Of a DNA stretch of 46,097 bases, positions 3,113 to 46,097 are shown in pieces. Below the pieces are notes generated by a model, which worked only from the letters and a program-made list of their open reading frames with translations, was not told where the DNA came from and did not search any database. Source of the stretch: Methanobacteriota archaeon. Its GTDB lineage: Archaea; Thermoplasmatota; Thermoplasmata; RBG-16-68-12; EA-27. Position 1 is the stretch's first letter, and every line of letters starts with the position of its first letter. A program made the translations under genes and the position numbers. The stretch spans positions 1 through 46,097 of the forward strand of contig JACQPO010000140.1 in assembly GCA_016207545.1 (NCBI GenBank). The letters are read 5' to 3'.

Positions 3113-4801
3113 TCACTCCAGGCTCGGCATCTTGAGGCCCGTCTTCTGCGCGAACGCGACCGCTTCCTCGTACCCCGCGTCCGCGTGGCGGACGACGCCC
3201 AAGCCGGGGTCCGTCGTCAGCACGCGTTCGATCCGCGCGGCCGCCTGGCGGGTGCCGTCGCACACGAGCAGGGCGCCCGCATGCGTCGAATACCCGATGC
3301 CGACGCCGCCGCCGTTGTGCACGGCGATGAGGTCCGCGCCCGCGGCCGTGTTGAGGAGCGCGTTCAGGATCGGCCAGTCCGCGATCGCGTCGCTCCCGTC
3401 CTTCATCCCCTCCGTCTCCCGGTACGGGGACGCGACGGACCCCGCGTCGAGGTGGTCCCGCGTGATGACGATCGGGCCGCTCAGCTTCCCGGAGCCGACC
3501 ATCCTGTTGATGACCTTCCCGAAACGTGCGCGCTCTCCATAGCCGAGCCAACACACGCGCGACGGCAGGCCTTCCCACGGGAGGTGCGCCTCCGCCATCT
3601 CAATCCAGTTCACGAGTTGGCGATTGCTCGCGAATTCCTTCCGGACGACCTGGTCCGTCTTCAGGATGTCCTCCGGGTCGCCCGTGACCGCGACCCATCG
3701 GAACGGTCCGCGGCCCTCGCAGAACATGGGTCGGATGTACAGCGGGACGAACCCCTTGAACGCGAACGCGTTCTGTACGCCCGCCTCGAGCGCCTGTGCG
3801 CGGATCCCGTTCCCGTACTCGAACACGACCGCGCCGCGCTTCTGGAACTCGAGCATCGCGCGGACGTGGATGCCGATCGACTCGAGGGAGCGGCGCTTGT
3901 ACGCCTTGGGGTCCGTCTCCCGAAGCTCCGCCGCCTCCTGCACGGAGAGACCCCGCGGGATGTAGCCGCCGATCGGGTCGTGGGCGCTCGTCTGGTCCGT
4001 GACGACGTCCGGCGTGATCCGCCGATTCAGGATCTCCGGATGGACCTCCGCACAGTTCCCGAGGTAGGCGACGGTCTCCGCGCGTCCCTCCCGCTTCGCG
4101 TCCTTCGCGATCACGAGCGCCTCCTCGAGGTCGTGGACGAGGTGGTCCACGTACTTCTTCGCGAGCCGTCGCGCAATCCGCGACTCGTCGACCTCGACCG
4201 CGAGGCACACGCCGCCGTTCATCTTCACCGCCAACGGCTGCGCGCCGCCCATCCCGCCGAGCCCGCCCGTGAGGACGAGCCGTCCCTTCAGGGCGCCGCC
4301 GAAGTGCTGGCGCGCGCATGCCGCGAACGTCTCGTACGTCCCTTGGATGATCCCCTGGGACCCGATGTAGGACCAGCCGCCAGCGGTCATCTGCCCGAAC
4401 ATGGTGAGGCCCAGCTTCTCGAGCTCGTAGAACGTCTCCCACGTGGACCAGCGGGGGACCAGGTTCGCGTTCGCGATGAGCACGCGGGGCGCGTTCGCGT
4501 GCGTGCGGAACACGGCCACGGGCTTCCCGGACTGGACGAGCAACGTTTCGTCGTCCTCGAGTTCCTTGAGCGCCTTCACGATGCGGTGGAACGCGTCCCA
4601 ACTCCGCGCGGCCTTGCCCGTGCCGCCGTATACGATGAGCTCCTCCGGCTTCTCCGCGTTCTCGAGGTTGTTCTCCAACATTCGGAGGATTGCTTCCTGC
4701 CGCCAGCCTTTGCACCGGACGTGCGGGCCCCGCGCGGCGAGGATGCGCTCCACGGCAGCACCATGCCCCCCGCGCCCTAAAGGGTTTCCCTCGTCCTCCA
4801 T
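3113..4801 (-). CDS. hutU: Urocanate hydratase
   Basis: Full-length match by eye to HutU (…[19 protein letters not shown]…[10 protein letters not shown]…ADAGYEEA…). The start is set at the ATG encoding MEDEGNP (4801), giving about 562 aa. The ORF-track start at 4858 adds 19 unconserved residues. Confidence 0.93.
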
Positions 4802-7249: not shown

Positions 7250-9385
7250 GTGCGATACGTCGTTTTGACCGTGGCCGTCGTCCTCCTCATTGGCGGTGCG
7301 CTGCTGAGTCTCCCCCCCGCGAACGCCGGGCCCCCGCAACCGTACAACCTCTACGGCCGGGCGTTCGAAGCCGACGGAATCACGCCGCTCCCGGTGGGGA
7401 CGCAGATCACGACGTGGATTGACGGGGTCCCGTACGGCAACGTGTCCGCCATTTTCACCGCATCGGGCGACTACGACGTAGACATCTTCGGCAACTGGGT
7501 CACGGATGTCGTGAGTCCGAACACGCCTGAGATCAAGGAAGGCGGCGATGTCGGCGACCTCATCCTCGTCGCGGCCGGCGACTTCGCGACCACCGCGCAG
7601 GTGTTCACCGCCAACAAAACTTGGTCTCCGGGCGACCTCGTGAACGAGAACCTCCAGCTTGCGCCTCTCGCGGTTCAGCCGCCTCTCCTCAAGATCGCGC
7701 GAATCGTGACGCGACCTGCGGACGGGCTCCCGCAATACATGTACGTGTGCAATCCGACGACGGACTTCATCAACGCGAACCAGTTCTACCTGCAGAAGGA
7801 CCTCAGCGGTCGGTACGACGGGCCCATCCACTCCCTCACCGGACTGGGCACGGTCCCCCCCGGAGGCCTCGCCTACGTGAACTTCACCGCCACGCTGACG
7901 CTGACGCCCACGGGGGACAACCTGAAGCTCGTCTGGGTGAACCCCGGGCCCGCGTTTGACGGCGCGGACGTCATCGTGGATCGCGTGGAGTTCAACGAGA
8001 CCGGAGGGACGGGCACGCTGTTCTGGGAACCGGGAAACACGATCGCGTCCGACGCGCCCGCACCCGACGTCGGCGAGGAGACCCGGCGGGACGGCACCTG
8101 CACGGACACGAACGACAGCGCCGCGGACTTCACGATTGCGGCGGAGAGCGGGAGGCCTGTCGGTGGCCTCGGGCCCACGGTCGAGCTCGTCACCCCGAAC
8201 GGCGGAGAGGATTGGACCGGCGGTACCATGCACACGATCATCTGGAACATGGCGGACTCGCAGGACTCCGCGCTCGACTACACGATCGAGCTCGACCTCA
8301 ACGGGGGAGCGGACGGCTATCCGATCTTCGTCGATTCCGGAAACCTCGGGACCGGGGCCGGACGGACGTTCGCTTGGATCGTGCCGCGGGAGAACTCGAC
8401 GACCGCCCGCATCCGCGTATGCGTGGTGAACACGTTTGGCTTCACTTCCTGCGACGCGAGCGCCGCGAACTTCATCATCGATTCCGCGGCGCCGAGCGTG
8501 ACGGCGATCGTGCCGGCGGACGCCGCCGCGGACGTCGACGTCCTCGCGGATTTCGTGATCACATTCGACGAGGCGATGAATCGCGTCACGACGCAGTCGG
8601 CGGTGACCCTCACGCCTGCCGCAGGAACCTTCTCATTCTCTTGGGACCCGGGGAGCACGGTCCTCACAATCTCCCATGTGCCCTTGCGCGTGAGCACGTC
8701 GTACACGTTGACGATCGGGACCACCGCCACGGACGGGTCGCTCCCCGGGAACACGCTGTCCGCCCCCGTCACGGTCGACTTCGCGACGTCGAGCGTCATC
8801 CCCGTCACCGCGGAGGCCGGGCCGGACCAGACGGCGCGGGTTGGCGAGACCGTCCAGTTCGACGGCGCCGGATCCACGGGGCCGGTCGACAACTACACGT
8901 GGGAAATCCGGGCGCCCGGCGGCGCAACGATCCTCCTGTACGGGCCCCAGCCCACGTTCCGACCCACGGTCGCGGGCGTCTTCAACGTGACCCTCACGGT
9001 GCGCGACGCGGGCGGCAACGAGGACCAGGATTTCGCGACGCTCACCGTCACCGGTTCGCTCCTCGATGCGCTGGCGAACTTCGCGTGGCTCATCCTGATC
9101 GTGGTCGCAGGGCTCGCGTTCCTCCTGATCCTGCTGTTCCGCCGCCGGCGCAGGGCGGAGCAGCCTCCACCCACGACACGGCCGCGGGGGGTGGAAGGGC
9201 CGAAACCCATCCCACCGGAGCGGGTCGAGGTCACGCCGGTCGCGCCGCCACCGCGAATGGAAGTGCCCCCCGCGACCGCGGGGCCCGCGCCAGGTCCGCG
9301 TCCGGGGACGAAGATGTGCCCGGCGTGCGGGACGATTGTCGACGCGGGCGACCCGGCGTGCTTCATGTGCGGGGCGAAGTTCTAG
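7250..9385 (+). CDS. Large cell-surface protein: signal peptide, lamin-tail-like domain, Ig-like (SbsA/Big_5-like) domain, PKD domain, TM anchor, Pro-rich cytoplasmic tail ending in a zinc ribbon
   Basis: N-terminus MRYVVLTVAVVLLIGGALLSLPPANA. The PKD-like segment is AEAGPDQTARVGETVQFDGAGS...FNVTLTVRDAGGNEDQDFATLTV. The TM is FAWLILIVVAGLAFLLILLFRRRRR. The C-terminus is MCPACGTIVDAGDPACFMCGAKF. Domain names are assigned by eye. Confidence 0.8.
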   Translation: MRYVVLTVAVVLLIGGALLSLPPANAGPPQPYNLYGRAFEADGITPLPVGTQITTWIDGVPYGNVSAIFTASGDYDVDIFGNWVTDVVSPNTPEIKEGGDVGDLILVAAGDFATTAQVFTANKTWSPGDLVNENLQLAPLAVQPPLLKIARIVTRPADGLPQYMYVCNPTTDFINANQFYLQKDLSGRYDGPIHSLTGLGTVPPGGLAYVNFTATLTLTPTGDNLKLVWVNPGPAFDGADVIVDRVEFNETGGTGTLFWEPGNTIASDAPAPDVGEETRRDGTCTDTNDSAADFTIAAESGRPVGGLGPTVELVTPNGGEDWTGGTMHTIIWNMADSQDSALDYTIELDLNGGADGYPIFVDSGNLGTGAGRTFAWIVPRENSTTARIRVCVVNTFGFTSCDASAANFIIDSAAPSVTAIVPADAAADVDVLADFVITFDEAMNRVTTQSAVTLTPAAGTFSFSWDPGSTVLTISHVPLRVSTSYTLTIGTTATDGSLPGNTLSAPVTVDFATSSVIPVTAEAGPDQTARVGETVQFDGAGSTGPVDNYTWEIRAPGGATILLYGPQPTFRPTVAGVFNVTLTVRDAGGNEDQDFATLTVTGSLLDALANFAWLILIVVAGLAFLLILLFRRRRRAEQPPPTTRPRGVEGPKPIPPERVEVTPVAPPPRMEVPPATAGPAPGPRPGTKMCPACGTIVDAGDPACFMCGAKF

Positions 9386-9628
9386 AATCGACTTGCCTGG
9401 CACAGTGAGGAGCCCATTCAGTAGTTTCAGAGCCAGCGAGAGAGACACTCGCAGAGGGACGACATAGATCTTCACTGCTCCCCGGGGCCCGGAGTGAGGG
9501 GCGATCGTCATCCAAGTGGGGCCCTAGCTCTGCGAATTGCGGGGATGTTACATGTACGCCCAAACCTAATGCCCTGCGGCGCGAACACCCCTCTCCACCT
9601 GCCATCAAGGCAGCGGAGAACCAAGAAC

Positions 9629-10003
9629 ATGGCTATGACGGAAACCCAGACGTTCGGCTTCGGCCAAAACGTCCTGCGGCTCCTCGAGAAGGAGAAGGAC
9701 GCCCTGAAGAAGGGCGGGATGGACGTAGACGCCGTGATCGCGGCGCAGCGTTCTCTCCTTGAGGCCGCCACGACCGCGAACGCCCAGCAGGCGGAGCTGC
9801 GGCGGCAGGCGAAAGCGGCGACCGCGCATTCGGACGCGATGACCCGCCGCCTGTACGTCGCCTCCTCCGGCTTCCTTGACATGGCGATCGCGGCCGTGCA
9901 GAAGGACAGCGACGCCGCGAAGGACTTCCGGCGCCTGCGAAGCCGGGTCGAACGGCCACCGAAGGGGGAGCTCCCCGCCGAGGAATCACCCGCAGAGGCG
10001 TAG
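9629..10003 (+). CDS. Hypothetical alpha-helical protein
   Basis: ATG 9629 (MAMTETQTFGFGQNVLRLLEKEKDALKK...). 124 aa, charged and helical composition, no family recognised. A stem-loop CCCAGCG-N9-CGCTGGG at 10023-10045 follows the stop codon. Confidence 0.45.
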   Translation: MAMTETQTFGFGQNVLRLLEKEKDALKKGGMDVDAVIAAQRSLLEAATTANAQQAELRRQAKAATAHSDAMTRRLYVASSGFLDMAIAAVQKDSDAAKDFRRLRSRVERPPKGELPAEESPAEA

Positions 10004-10130
10004 ATCGTCACCCACCCGCGTTCCCAGCGTTCCTGCGACGCTGGGCCTCCTTCCCTCCGGTCCGTGCGGGACCGCTTGAGGGCATGGGCTCTGAACCTGG
10101 TACCGCGGCTGTCCTTTGGAAACCGTACGC

Positions 10131-10500
10131 AGGCTTTCTTCGCATCCGAGCCAGCTTCCCTCGATTCCGAGGGAGTTTCCTGCAATTTTGGCGGGAGTTT
10201 TCGTCGAATTCGAAGGAGTTCCCCGCGGCCTCCGAAAGAGTGTTCGAACCCGAGAGAAGTACTCCCCACGTTCGCGGCAGACCCCCTCGACCTCGCGGGA
10301 ATTCCCCTCCCGATGGAAGGAACGTCCTACGGCTCCGAGGGAATCCCCCGCCGGTCTGCGGAATCTTTCCGCGCGTTCGAACCCATTTTCTACGATCGGA
10401 GGATTGTCCCCTGACTTGGAAGGAAATTCCTGCGCTCCCGCGGGACGTTCCTTCACGTCCGCGGCAAGGTTCTTCGGACGCGAGGAAACTTGCTTTTCGC
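10131..10500. repeat. Array A: about 17-18 degenerate tandem units of ~21 bp with short GGAA/TTCC-type dyads
   Basis: GGA-type cores start at 10172, 10194, 10215, 10237, 10256, 10276, 10298, 10319, 10340, 10360, 10378, 10401, 10422, 10443, 10463 and 10484 (spacing 18-23 bp). The loose consensus is GGAAtTCCCC-N5-7-TCCGAG. Perfect dyads include GGGAATTCCC at 10297-10306 and AGGAAATTCCT at 10421-10431. Confidence 0.7.
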
Positions 10501-10545
10501 GCCGCCAAAAGCTATTTCCCCGCCTCCGCCATCGCACGGCCCTCC

Positions 10546-11943
10546 ATGGTCTCCAAGTCCGACGACTTCAGCGAGTGGTACAACGAGGTCATCGACAAGG
10601 CGGGCTTGCGGGACAAGCGGTACCCCGTGAAGGGGATGGACGTGTGGACGCCCTACGGATGGTCGGCGATGACGCTCATCGACAACCTCATGCGCCGCGA
10701 GATGGCCCGCACGGGACATGGAGAGGTGAACTTCCCCCTCCTCATCCCGGAGACGGAGTTCCGCAAGGAGGCGGAGCACATCCGTGGGTTCGAGGACGAG
10801 GTGTACTGGGTCACCCACGCGGGGAAGAACCCGCTCGACATCCGCCTCTGCTTGCGCCCGACGAGCGAGACCGCGATGTATCCCGTCTTCGCGCTGTGGA
10901 TCCGCAGCCACGCGGACCTCCCGCTCAAGGTCTTCCAGATCGTGTCCACGTTCCGGTACGACACGAAACAGACGCGCACGTTCCTCCGCGTGCGGGAGAT
11001 CCACTTCTTCGAGTCCCACACCGCCCACGTGGACGCGGACGACGCGGAGCGGCAGATCCACGAGGACCTCGAGATCATGGAGCGGCTCGGCCGCGAGCTG
11101 TGCGTCCCGTACCTGCTCATGCGCCGCCCGGAGTGGGACAAGTTCCCCGGCGCGTTTTACTCCTTGGCGGCGGATGCGTACGCTCCGACGGGCCGGACGT
11201 TACAACTCGCGACGATGCACCACTACCGGGACAACTTCGCGAAGGCGTACGACATCACGTACGAGGCGCCGGACGGCTCCCGCCAATTTGCGCACCAGAC
11301 CACGTACGGGATGTCGGAACGGCTCCTCGGCGCGCTCGTCGCGGTCCACGGGGACGACAAAGGCATCGTGATCCCGCCTGCGGTCGCGCCGATCCAGATC
11401 GTCGTCGTCCCGATCCCGGAGAAGGGGCGCCAGGACGTCATCCTCGACGAGGCACGGAAGTTGGCGGCGGAGCTCGGGGAACACGTGCGGGTGAAGTACG
11501 ACGACCGCGACCTGCGTCCGGGCGCGAAGTTCTACGAGTGGGAGGCGAAGGGCGTGCCCCTCCGCGCGGAACTCGGCCCGCGCGACCTGGCGGACGGCGT
11601 CGTCACCCTCGCGCGGCGGGACGCGGACGGACGCTCGACGGTGCCCCGGTCGGGGGTCGTCGACGCGGTGCGTTCCCTGTTGAACGAAATCCAGAAGGAC
11701 CTGTACGCTCGGGCGGAGCGGGAGCTGCGCACGCACATCTTCGACATCGCGGCCCCGGAGGAGGCGCGGGAGGCGATCAACCGGTTCGGCTGGTGCGGGA
11801 GCGAGTCGTGCGGCTTGCAGGTCGAGGCGGACACAGGGATGTCCCTCCTCGGAACGCCGTTCCTGAAGGAACCGTACTCGGGGTCGTGCATCGTGTGCGG
11901 GAAACCGACGGACACCCCCGCGTACCTCGCGCGAACGTACTGA
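10546..11943 (+). CDS. proS: Prolyl-tRNA synthetase, archaeal/eukaryotic type
   Basis: The conserved N-terminus MVSKSDDFSEWYNEVIDKAGLRDKRYPVKGM begins at ATG 10546. The class II core and the C-terminal Zn-binding tail ...CIVCGKPTDTPAYLARTY are present. The ORF-track start at 10084 runs through repeat array A. Confidence 0.93.
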   Translation: MVSKSDDFSEWYNEVIDKAGLRDKRYPVKGMDVWTPYGWSAMTLIDNLMRREMARTGHGEVNFPLLIPETEFRKEAEHIRGFEDEVYWVTHAGKNPLDIRLCLRPTSETAMYPVFALWIRSHADLPLKVFQIVSTFRYDTKQTRTFLRVREIHFFESHTAHVDADDAERQIHEDLEIMERLGRELCVPYLLMRRPEWDKFPGAFYSLAADAYAPTGRTLQLATMHHYRDNFAKAYDITYEAPDGSRQFAHQTTYGMSERLLGALVAVHGDDKGIVIPPAVAPIQIVVVPIPEKGRQDVILDEARKLAAELGEHVRVKYDDRDLRPGAKFYEWEAKGVPLRAELGPRDLADGVVTLARRDADGRSTVPRSGVVDAVRSLLNEIQKDLYARAERELRTHIFDIAAPEEAREAINRFGWCGSESCGLQVEADTGMSLLGTPFLKEPYSGSCIVCGKPTDTPAYLARTY

Positions 11944-13086: not shown

Positions 13087-13914
13087 CTACGTGGGTTCCT
13101 CGACGACGAATTCGTCCCGCTCCGGCTTCGTCGCGGACGCCTCGCCGAGCGGCGTGAGGATGATCCGGAAGTTGCCGGGACCGATCTCTTCCTTCACGAC
13201 GTAGCCGAGCTGGTGCAACGCGTCGACCTCCGCCATGATCGTCCCGTAGTCCGTGCCCTTGAACGCGAGGAGGAGCTCGTTCTTCGTGACCCCGACGGTT
13301 CCGCGCTTCAACGCAAAGACGAGCATCCGTTCCGCGAGCACGTTGAGATGACGCCGCGCACGGGACCGCTCGAGCACGCGATCGACGACCCGCTCGATGA
13401 GGGCGTCGAACGCGGCCCCGACGCCCATCCCCGTCTTCGCGCTCGCGAGCGCGTACGGCACCTCCGGGAACTTCGACAGGAGCCAGTGCGTCTCCCGCGG
13501 CCCGATTGCGCTGTTCGGGACGAGGTCGGCCTTGTTCAGGATGAGGGTGTACGGGACCTCCTCCGCCACGGAGTGGACGGCCTCGACCCACAACGGCAGC
13601 TGGTACAGCGTGTCCGAGCGGGTCAGGTCCGCGACCGCGAGGAAGCCGTGCGCGCCCCAGAAAATCGCGTCCCGAAACGCGTCCCGCGGTGCGTGCTCGC
13701 CCATGAGGTCGAACAGGGCGACCTGCGCCTCGACGATCTGGTCCGCGGTCACGTACTTCGAAAACGACAGCAGGTGGAGCTTGCTGCCGAGGGTCCCGCG
13801 GTACGTGTCGTCGAACGTGTTGAACAAATACCGGTGGATGAGGGACGTCTTGCCGACCGCACGTTCGCCCACGAGGACGATCTTGATTTTCATCTTGCGA
13901 ATTTGGCGGGGCAT
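13087..13914 (-). CDS. Ras/Rab-like small GTPase fused to a C-terminal winged-helix (wHTH)-like domain
   Basis: G1 is GERAVGKT, the switch I region is YRGTLG, G3 is DLMG, G4 is NKAD and G5 is SAK. The C-terminal ~90 aa (...LVFALKRGTVGVTKNELLLAFKGTDYGTIMAEVDALHQLGYVVKEE...RIILTPLG) look like a MarR/ArsR-type wHTH. An alternative start is M8 at 13893. Confidence 0.8.
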   Translation of the reverse strand: MPRQIRKMKIKIVLVGERAVGKTSLIHRYLFNTFDDTYRGTLGSKLHLLSFSKYVTADQIVEAQVALFDLMGEHAPRDAFRDAIFWGAHGFLAVADLTRSDTLYQLPLWVEAVHSVAEEVPYTLILNKADLVPNSAIGPRETHWLLSKFPEVPYALASAKTGMGVGAAFDALIERVVDRVLERSRARRHLNVLAERMLVFALKRGTVGVTKNELLLAFKGTDYGTIMAEVDALHQLGYVVKEEIGPGNFRIILTPLGEASATKPERDEFVVEEPT

Positions 13915-13952
13915 CGGGGGGGCCGGTAGGTCAGCGTGCCAGGGGGATTTTA

Positions 13953-14810
13953 ATGTATAGGGGTGGGTATCGCGGCGACGTGTCGAGGGCCCAGGCCCCG
14001 CCTGACCCTTATGAAGGGGTCGGGAGGAGGCTGCCGGCGGAGCTGAGGCCGTGGGTGCCCCGCCGGTACGAGCGTCTTGGGGGCGTCCTCCTCCTGAAGC
14101 TGCCCCGGGAGCTCGGGGAGCGCCGTCGCGAGGTCGCCGCGGCGTACGCGAGCGTCCTCCGGGCGAGGACGGTCGTCGCGGACCACGGAATCCGCGGACC
14201 GTGGCGGGAGCCGGACGTGGAGCTTCTGTACGGACACTCCACGGAGACGGTCCACACGGAGGACGGCGTCCGCTTCCGCCTCGACGTCGCGAAGGTCATG
14301 TTCTCGTCGGGGAACCTCGCGGAGCGGATGCGGATGGGTCGCGCCGTGCGGCCGGACGAGACCGTCGTCGACCTGTTCGCGGGCATCGGGTACTTCGCGC
14401 TCCCGATGGCGGTGCACGGGCGCCCGAAGCGGGTCGTCGCGATCGAGGTGAACCCGACCGCGTACGCGTATCTCGAGGCCAATGTTCGGCTCAACCGGGC
14501 ATGGTGCGTCGAGCCCCGATTCGGGGACTGCCGCGCGGTCGCGCCCGACGCGGTCGCGGACCGGATCGTGATGGGCTACTTGCACGCGGACGAGCACCTC
14601 GACGTCGCGATGCGCGCCGCGGGCGATGCGTGCGTGTTGCATTACCACGAAAACGTCCCCGCCGAGGAGGTGCCCGCCCGACCCTGGTCTCGCGTGGAGT
14701 CCGCGGCCCAACGTGCGGGCTTCCGGGCGGACCTGTTGGCGGTGCACCGGATCAAGTCGTACGCGCCCCGCATCCGGCACGTCGTGCTCGACGTGCGGTT
14801 GACCCGATGA
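13953..14810 (+). CDS. trm5: tRNA (guanine37-N1)-methyltransferase Trm5/Taw22-like (Met-10+ family)
   Basis: Conserved segments are ...LGGVLLLKLPREL..., FRLDVAKVMFSSGNLAERMRM, the SAM motif VVDLFAGIGYFALPMA, and VAIEVNPTAYAYL. The exact start is uncertain. Confidence 0.8.
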   Translation: MYRGGYRGDVSRAQAPPDPYEGVGRRLPAELRPWVPRRYERLGGVLLLKLPRELGERRREVAAAYASVLRARTVVADHGIRGPWREPDVELLYGHSTETVHTEDGVRFRLDVAKVMFSSGNLAERMRMGRAVRPDETVVDLFAGIGYFALPMAVHGRPKRVVAIEVNPTAYAYLEANVRLNRAWCVEPRFGDCRAVAPDAVADRIVMGYLHADEHLDVAMRAAGDACVLHYHENVPAEEVPARPWSRVESAAQRAGFRADLLAVHRIKSYAPRIRHVVLDVRLTR

Positions 14811-43911: not shown

Positions 43912-45899
<1,988 letters not shown>

Positions 45900-46097
45900 T
45901 CGATTCGCGAGCCTTAATAAAAATCGGCCATTTGCGGGGAAGTCCGTCGTATCCTGCGCTACTCGCCGCCAGATTGGCGGCAGTAACAACGCGCTAGGTG
46001 CGGATCATCCGCAGGGAAGGCCGACGTTGAATCGTCGGAACCCTCAGAGACTGTATGCCGATCACCGCGCACCAGCGGTGAAGATATAGTCCGACCC
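45900..46097 (+). ncRNA. Group I intron (5' ~200 nt; truncated by the window end) inserted in the 23S rRNA gene
   Basis: P1 pairs exon UUAAGGU (45893-45899) with GCCUUAA (45911-45917), with U45899-G45911 at the splice site. P3 pairs AUCGGC (45923-45928) with GCCGAU (46057-46062). P7 5' is GAGACU (46047-46052). The P8 hairpin is CACCGC-gcacca-GCGGUG (46063-46080). J8/7-P7 is AAGAUAUAGUC (46081-46091), matching the Tetrahymena intron core. Confidence 0.8.

Follow-up and report, generated by a model that had tools for sequence, protein, structure and literature searches.

Among described systems, the sopB-sopC locus of the F plasmid, a type Ia partition centromere, is closest in architecture to the one considered here: the roughly 516 bp of sopC comprise 12 repeats of 43 bp, with an inverted repeat of 16 bp in every one (PMC3177203). 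The present analysis concerns a gene-array module in a contig of 46,097 nucleotides (JACQPO010000140.1, the whole of which is referred to as the window) from an uncultured Thermoplasmata archaeon, in which the gene for P0121, a small all-helical protein, is followed by an array of degenerate 21-bp units that ends just ahead of proS, the gene for prolyl-tRNA synthetase (ProRS). Like sopB-sopC, the module has tandem direct repeats with inverted-repeat motifs directly downstream of a gene, which encodes the binder in the F plasmid and a putative binder here. In this comparison the module arrays count 12-19 units of 21 bp, with dyads of 12-16 bp, over about 250-490 bp. Unlike sopB-sopC, the module lacks a ParB/SopB-type domain and a gene for a ParA/SopA ATPase, it lies outside any plasmid context, its unit is half as long (21 versus 43 bp), and it sits in the chromosome, in several paralogous copies per genome. 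Type II and type III plasmid centromeres (R1 parC, pSK41 parC, tubC) are made of 11-20-bp iterons bound cooperatively by the small dimeric proteins ParR or TubR, which have ribbon-helix-helix or winged-helix folds, form a continuous nucleoprotein superstructure on the iterons and act with ParM or TubZ filaments, whereas the protein of the module has an unrelated all-helical fold and no linked motor gene. Theta-plasmid iterons (for example the 22-bp iterons of R6K) are direct repeats of about 19-22 bp set about two helical turns apart, and an iteron control array sometimes lies just downstream of the initiator gene, as P1 incA does downstream of repA. Such iterons are typically asymmetric, bound by monomers and located beside a winged-helix Rep gene and an AT-rich region, in contrast to the dyad sites of the module, which have neither a Rep gene nor an AT-rich region beside them. 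The ARG boxes of ArgR are imperfect palindromes, 21 bp from center to center, on which oligomers occupy one face of the helix, but operators of this type comprise 2-4 sites inside a promoter while the module arrays comprise 12-19 sites outside any promoter.

With toxI arrays and arrays of clustered regularly interspaced short palindromic repeats (CRISPR), the module shares a tandem array beside a small gene with a terminator between them. The toxI repeats are near-identical RNA units of 34-40 nt that occur with an endoRNase toxin, and CRISPR loci have spacers and cas genes; neither set of features is present in the module. The site of action of KfrA is its own promoter, and among its partners are the segrosome proteins IncC/KorB. 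It is an alpha-helical, oligomerizing protein of broad-host-range plasmids that binds a repetitive operator as dimers (PMC7783346). No KfrA-type match to the small protein was found by sequence or by fold, and searches of curated libraries and of the literature returned no equivalent module, only the comparators sopC, ParR, TubR and KfrA. By analogy, then, the module may be likened to a centromere or operator array, and it is placed in no known family, a defining feature of each having been looked for and not found. Tandem dyad sites, as in a partition centromere, are present (12-19 phased units with dyad cores), without a ParB/helix-turn-helix, ribbon-helix-helix or winged-helix protein and without linked ParA, ParM or TubZ; and no Rep initiator gene or AT-rich unwinding element, as at an iteron origin, adjoins the array.

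Between the small gene and proS, at positions 10004-10545 of the window, 0.42 of bases are identical at lag 21 (z = 8.0 against 500 dinucleotide-preserving shuffles, for which the 99th percentile of the per-shuffle maximum z is 3.8), with harmonics at lags 42-43 and 63-64. The original prediction, made from the sequence by eye, had described a 21-bp tandem run upstream of proS and had proposed autocorrelation against shuffled controls as a check; the run is real, and its periodicity stands well above the controls. Tandem Repeats Finder, suggested at the same time, returned no report at the array locus even at score 30, because the units are too degenerate. Iterative refinement of a position weight matrix resolved 17-18 units from 10124 to about 10497, spaced 19, 21, 22, 21, 22 and 19 bp and thereafter mostly 21 bp, and the core starts listed originally match the refined positions. 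The unit consensus, tcCGagGGAa.TTcCctCG, is dyad-symmetric (column-permutation p < 0.003), with a core dyad close to CGAGGGAA.TTCCCTCG. Every dyad listed in the original prediction was found as written, including, beside the perfect palindrome in the table, GCGGAAtctTTCCGC at 10358-10372 and AGGAAATTCCT at 10421-10431. The extent given there, 10046-10545, needs trimming at both ends: it holds from 10124 to about 10497, while 10046-10123 is the pyrimidine tail of the terminator hairpin of the upstream gene (10023-10045) together with a second hairpin, and 10502-10545 is likewise outside the array. Elsewhere in the window there was no 21-bp-specific periodicity of comparable strength; the contrast of lag 21 over lags 18 and 24 is 0.20 for the array and 0.15-0.17 for three weaker signals, at least two of which lie within coding sequence. 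No tRNA was found within the array.

The array recurs beside homologues of the small gene, with which it forms a two-part module. About 65 loci were fetched, forming 47 clusters at 95% protein identity, of which 40 had at least 300 bp of downstream sequence. In the 500 bp downstream of the family gene the top periodicity was 21 or 42 bp at z >= 4 in 32 of these 40, as opposed to 3 of 41 upstream. Run on 422 kb, a statistic in which coding periodicity cancels out (the identity at lag 21 less that at lags 18 and 24) put nearly every strong 21-bp array near a family gene, no more than about 260 bp downstream of it or 552 bp upstream; one further array, at 3358-3725 of locus L014, lies 657 bp downstream and continues a gene-adjacent array. 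The pairing extends to P0240 (L070), which is only about 26% identical to the window protein and has 15 units of CGGGCAnnTGCCCG right after its stop codon. At loci L042/L044 and L050/L051 the array is upstream of the small gene, so it is adjacency that is conserved and not order. Both the window and the family show a family gene beside at least about 10 dyad units at exactly 21 bp. All-against-all clustering of flanking open reading frames (ORFs) across about 60 loci found no conserved neighbor gene (motor, integrase or nuclease) besides the small protein, the large clusters being ORFs that run antisense to the small gene or extend through arrays. The module is multi-copy per genome and its presence varies between close relatives, and in several lineages it has been inherited vertically in a stable chromosomal context. 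Arrays often adjoin the 3' end of a convergent gene, outside any promoter. The earlier suggestion of a lineage-specific repeat family is borne out, and the gene-array pair recurs across uncultured Thermoplasmata.

Among 40 non-redundant arrays there were 5-19 units (median 14) over 142-489 bp (median 336), and 391 of 429 adjacent spacings (91%) were exactly 21 bp, the rest being mostly 20 (17), 22 (12) or 19 bp (5). Units within an array are just 45-60% alike, approximately, and that indels are almost lacking although units diverge by about 50% speaks for a constraint on unit spacing. In most arrays the unit consensus is significantly dyad-symmetric, with dyads of 12-16 bp and 11-19 of 42 possible bits of information per unit; the 7-9-bp linkers vary, in degenerate form, on a consensus of their own, and collinearity holds between orthologous arrays. 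The sequence of the core differs among lineages. Besides that of the window array, the cores are CAGCGGGAA.TCCGCTG in L028, CGyTGCATGCrGCG in L009, L024 and L027, CCGCaACATGTTtCG in the group of L010, L012 and L026, CTCCACATGTGGAG in L055 and L056, CCGTCCCGaCCGGGACGG in L014, L058 and L061, and CATCCCCgcGGGGACA in L042 and L044. It also differs among paralogues. One metagenome-assembled genome (MAG), OBJ1_062018_150_24, has four modules with four different cores, centered on GCATGC in L009 and on ACATGT in L012, reading GTCCCGaCCGGGAC in L014, and with a weaker consensus in the 5 units of L015, where dyad symmetry is not significant; a second MAG, bin_16, has two modules. Since the small protein is the sole module-specific gene, four cores in one MAG imply that no single shared host factor reads them all.

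Comparison of orthologous arrays showed 0.076 changes per site at columns with at least 1 bit of information and 0.19 at columns with less than 0.5 bit (pooled Spearman rho = -0.35, p = 4e-6). Cores therefore change 2.5 times more slowly than linkers and are under purifying selection, in arrays that as a whole evolve at about the rate of the neighboring spacer. No significant compensatory covariation was detected between half-sites (overall z = 0.8). Half-sites form 1971 Watson-Crick pairs, where shuffles give 1934 +/- 18, and composition accounts entirely for the surplus of G-T over A-C pairs between them. The array does fold more stably than shuffles, with a z-score of -3.2 on both strands, and equality between strands is expected of DNA palindromes. 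The symmetry therefore lies in the consensus, as a dimer bound to duplex DNA would predict and a hairpin would not.

Features of the module and of the adjoining proS gene in the window are collected in the table.

Table. Coordinates of the module and its immediate surroundings in the window (strand "." where no strand applies)
Feature	Position	Strand	Remarks
Whole module, insertion of about 1.1 kb	9386..10501	.	The orthologous locus of the closest relative has about 8-10 bp instead
Leader of the small gene, 243 bp, presumed promoter and 5' untranslated region	9386..9628	+	G+C lower, 0.52-0.68
Gene for the 124-aa all-helical protein P0121, uncharacterized family	9629..10003	+	G+C at third codon positions (GC3) 0.87
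Terminator-like hairpin CCCAGCG-(9 nt)-CGCTGGG, then pyrimidine run CCTCCTTCCCTCC	10023..10058	+	
Array of about 18 degenerate 21-bp units with dyad-symmetric core	10124..10497	.	Ends at the right edge of the insertion
Best-preserved core GGGAATTCCC, perfect palindrome	10297..10306	.	
Native proS promoter and leader, CCGCCAAAAGCTATTT...CATCG.ACGGCCCTCC	10502..10545	+	Conserved in relatives without the module
proS, archaeal-type prolyl-tRNA synthetase, 465 aa	10546..11943	+	Neighbor of the module, outside it

Position beside proS, the feature by which the array was first described, proved incidental. Three relatives (L001, L002 and L003), whose ProRS proteins are 95%, 80% and 80% identical to that of the window, lack the module and have only 49-52 bp between the stop codon of a gene with Big_5, PKD and zinc-ribbon domains and the ATG of proS. 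BLAST homology to L001 stops at window position 9383 and restarts at 10498, and alignment of the junctions places the end of homology at the stop codon of the PKD-domain gene (9383-9385) and its return at the proS promoter CCGCCAAAAGCTATTT, at 10502. Because homology breaks and then resumes, the intervening sequence is an insertion, which would have entered between the preceding stop codon and an intact proS promoter; the array is the downstream half of a gene-array module whose neighbors in the window happen to encode a PKD-domain protein and ProRS. Neither terminal inverted repeats nor a target-site duplication was seen at the junctions, and a 6-bp ACTTGC direct repeat there is regarded as chance. 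The leader of the small gene shows no nucleotide similarity to leaders of other family members. A different arrangement near proS was observed in L052 (Ga0209751_10025258), where positions 1-1516 have a 162-bp direct repeat (1-162 and 1355-1516, 96% identical) on either side of a small gene truncated to residues 1-62, and the repeat holds the 5' end of proS in opposite orientation; this could be a rearrangement at proS or a contig-end assembly artifact.

Inspection of 29 loci showed that in nearly all of them the stop codon of the small gene is followed, typically within about 20-40 nt, by a hairpin rich in G+C and a T-rich or pyrimidine run, and the array starts about 50-250 bp past this tract. 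At the window locus a C/T run is what remains of the decayed T-run. A conserved hairpin and T-run after the stop codon place the array outside the mRNA of the gene. No conserved TATA-like box was found ahead of arrays; for example, TTTAAA before the array of L012 becomes CTCAAA or CCCAAA in close relatives. As observations in their own right, the hairpin and T-run have the shape of a bacterial-style intrinsic terminator, here in archaea, and the stem sequence GGCCCCCTCGCGGGGGCC is nearly identical across many diverged loci.

The start motif M-x-L-S-E-T-Q is common to 27 close homologues of P0121, which are 54-78% identical to it and among which is a paralogue from the same MAG (P0122), and a profile search expanded the family to 196 clusters at 50% identity, nearly all of about 125 aa. 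Exact-sequence look-ups of P0122 and of the window ProRS, taken as 465 or as 619 aa, returned no record. The AlphaFold2 model of P0121 is confident (predicted local distance difference test, pLDDT, 88) and entirely helical, with helices at residues 5-21, 23-28, 33-89 and 95-106 and a disordered, Pro/Glu-rich tail. Searches of Pfam, PHROGs and NCBIfam gave no match (the best, PQLLE_fam, at E = 0.015, was far below cut-off), nor did a sequence-profile search of the PDB or, at E < 1, Foldseek against the PDB and BFVD. Across 78 diverse members Q54, T65, S80, D84, K92 and R104 are near-invariant, and the family has a conserved basic, arginine-rich C-terminal helix, FRRLRSR. When identity in the rest of the protein was regressed out, array similarity tracked identity in residues 1-15 and 46-60 (partial r 0.46-0.56, an exploratory result confounded by shared ancestry) and did not track residues 19-33, residues 67-87 or the hypervariable tail. 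Judging from helix boundaries alone, the two tracking segments could pack together in a helical hairpin. No family member was found in PLSDB (72,556 plasmids), INPHARED (50,697 phage records) or IMG/VR viral contigs. Distant relatives occur as tandem-duplicated proteins of about 230 aa (P0218, P0223, P0233 and P0250; loci L073-L075, which are marine metagenome contigs); P0233 has a DksA-like neighbor and no array, there being just 160 bp to the next gene.

All of the evidence is comparative. Phasing, dyads, selection on the cores and lack of covariation favor a phased array of protein-binding sites, which was among the candidates first put forward, and it is probable that the array is protein-binding DNA of some kind. 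More specifically, we give an even chance to its being a phased array of dyad operators on duplex DNA for which the small protein encoded beside it is, in dimeric form, the most likely binder. If so, about 18 dyad-symmetric operators would act in cis on double-stranded DNA, exactly two helical turns apart so that all sites would face the same side of the helix. Dimers of the 124-aa protein would recognize the palindromic cores and may assemble cooperatively along one face of the DNA, building an extended nucleoprotein complex of about 380 bp. Since paralogous modules differ in their cores and the small protein is the sole module-specific gene, it is most economical to suppose that each dimer reads its own array, and because each lineage and each paralogous module has its own core the modules look like orthogonal pairs of reader and array. 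The complex might be a handle resembling a centromere, might anchor or bridge, or might act as a roadblock or as a sink by which the protein is titrated.

Several observations count against binding by the adjacent protein. No recognizable DNA-binding fold, such as helix-turn-helix or ribbon-helix-helix, was found in it, and the isoelectric point ranges from 5.1 to 10.5 across the family, which is therefore not uniformly basic. The covariation of protein segments with arrays, being confounded by shared ancestry, is a lead only. There was no clear cognate site in the promoter of the small gene itself (Kolmogorov-Smirnov p = 0.07). Among the 40 testable loci, three had lag 21 as the top periodicity at a weak z of 3.5-3.9, and five had no 21-bp signal downstream, two of these with an array upstream. 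Finally, an orphan array at 280-789 of L058 had no family gene detected within positions 1-1500 of the locus; it lies 3.2 kb upstream of a normal module on the same contig.

Some of these points would be explained if the array were a phased operator array with its binder encoded elsewhere and the small protein an adaptor or regulator of the complex. Phasing, dyads, core selection and lack of covariation fit such an arrangement equally, one orphan array exists, and a protein with no known DNA-binding fold and a variable isoelectric point is consistent with it. We nevertheless consider it fairly unlikely, since with four cores in one genome and only the small protein conserved beside the arrays each module would need its own unlinked reader, and since segments 1-15 and 46-60 of the small protein track array similarity. 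A role at the level of RNA is unlikely as well: transcribed, the array would yield a repeat RNA of short hairpins that binds, sequesters or is processed by the small protein, in the manner of a sponge or a type III antitoxin. The palindromic cores could pair into 5-6-bp stems closed by tetraloops, folding of the array is more stable than that of shuffles, the FRRLRSR helix is arginine-rich, and a terminator separates gene and array as in toxIN loci, with the order reversed. Half-sites without significant compensatory covariation, a folding z-score equal on both strands (-3.2 and -3.2), the lack of a conserved TATA-like box before arrays, the inversion of gene-array order at some loci and units far too degenerate for a processed repeat RNA all speak against this. 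Rfam gave nothing for the array below E = 0.08, with all matches far under gathering scores, so that neither an Rfam match nor base-pair covariation marks it as a structured RNA. A type III toxin-antitoxin system as such was considered and rejected, 11-19 of 42 bits being too degenerate and the all-helical protein having no ToxN/AbiQ match. CRISPR was rejected too, in agreement with the original prediction: the 21-bp units abut, with no unique spacers, and there is no cas gene nearby. It is quite improbable that an integrated plasmid-like element lies behind the module, which would then be what is left of it or its minimal replicon or maintenance cassette, with the array as iteron origin, copy control or centromere. 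Presence that differs between close relatives, multiple copies per genome and circular permutation of gene and array at some loci would suit such an origin, and iterons and plasmid centromeres are well established as tandem repeats of about 20 bp, often beside the gene for their binder (for sopC, PMC3177203). Against it are the lack of a Rep, ParA, ParM, TubZ or integrase gene conserved nearby, the missing AT-rich unwinding region, the absence of the family from the plasmid, phage and viral collections searched, and vertical inheritance in stable chromosomal context in several lineages.

The remaining explanations fare worse. A neutral minisatellite, decaying after replication slippage and without function, would account for degenerate units and for an array that evolves near the rate of the neighboring spacer, but it is very improbable and is already contradicted by the comparative data, which show gene and array paired down to about 26% protein identity, cores 2.5 times slower than linkers, 91% of steps at exactly 21 bp despite heavy substitution, and dyad symmetry recurring with different sequences in independent lineages. 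Equally hard to credit is a replication origin of Orc1/Cdc6-binding origin recognition box (ORB) or mini-ORB elements, an idea of the original prediction that was prompted by TTCC...GGA motifs recurring in the window units and that is now rejected. No AT-rich region is present (the minimum G+C of any 60-bp window in 9200-10800 is 0.50), no orc1/cdc6 gene adjoins the module, a mini-ORB-like pattern matched at chance level (2 against 1.1 expected), the element is missing from the closest relatives, and several modules with different cores occur in one genome, the cores of other lineages being unrelated. Least credible of all is translation of the array, whether as a heptad-repeat N-terminal extension of ProRS, as a separate repeat protein or as a decayed coding sequence. 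A period of 7 codons invites this reading, as does the paucity of stops, which had been described as leaving at least four frames open; the proS frame and one minus-strand frame are indeed stop-free across 10046-10545, whereas two others have a single stop each. However, G+C is flat across codon phases (0.56-0.62 over the whole window array and 0.50-0.75 across 120-bp sub-windows), unlike a GC3 of 0.93-0.95 in proS and the high value of the upstream small gene, and codon phases differ by a mean spread of 0.12 in 41 arrays, compared with 0.46 between GC3 and GC2 in adjacent genes. In the arrays of 40 loci stop triplets occur about 35% less often than expected from dinucleotide composition, whichever strand or frame is read, unlike the pattern of 1/248/29 across the three frames of real genes. 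Unit spacings of 19, 20 and 22 bp shift the frame, all but one of the 17 closest ProRS homologues are 465 aa with the same start methionine, and the conserved proS promoter separates the array from the ATG. A translated extension or decayed gene, which the original prediction had named as the finding that would overturn it, is thus excluded; with no bias between codon positions in G+C, the array is not a protein-coding heptad repeat.

Stop-poor arrays are mostly open in at least one frame per strand and so invite false calls of long ORFs, which is a caution for annotation: in the window a mechanical ORF of 619 aa reads through the array into proS, and several database homologues are over-long (571-633 aa). 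Some Thermoplasmata-like ProRS entries (P0062 and P0089) are 571-588 aa with an extra Mrr_cat (PF04471) match, and others of 577-633 aa have no extra domain; these could be fusions or read-through calls. Apart from the module, the window holds an archaeal large-subunit rRNA gene at 43926-46097 that runs off its end, with an Rfam group I intron match at 45870-46097 that scores 50.4 bits, at the gathering score, and is cut by the window end. A 402-aa ORF with a Ras/Roc small-GTPase domain lies at 13087-14295 on the minus strand; its synteny is conserved in the relatives, whose versions have 274-275 aa. Tandem repeats of 12 and 24 bp (unit GGAACGGACGCC) at 458-527 fall within a predicted ORF, 237-1709, and are presumably a coding peptide repeat.

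Should the array indeed be bound by the adjacent protein, the modules would make up a compact, naturally occurring set of specific protein-DNA pairs in which phased palindromes give assemblies of about 380 bp. It would mean that the recognition sequence has diversified repeatedly, with several non-identical pairs coexisting in one cell, and would add a new DNA-binding fold. The pairs could furnish synthetic biology with orthogonal operators and readers, as naturally occurring counterparts of lacO or tetO arrays. A broader possibility, offered tentatively and with more doubt than confidence, is that the modules represent an undescribed class of orthogonal, motor-less chromosomal pairs of reader and array in Thermoplasmata, in which a new-fold protein of about 125 aa would polymerize as dimers on its own array, with about 18 sites in 21-bp phase, to form sequence-addressed nucleoprotein filaments, several mutually non-cross-reacting paralogous pairs would occur per genome, and chromosome organization, segregation, anchoring or selfish maintenance would proceed without a ParA, ParM or TubZ motor. 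Such a class would be a new kind of prokaryotic DNA-organizing system. For these archaea, which have no cultured representative, binding of the array by its neighboring protein would be a new way to mark chromosomal loci and could reveal a mechanism for genome organization, segregation or selfish maintenance in Thermoplasmata.

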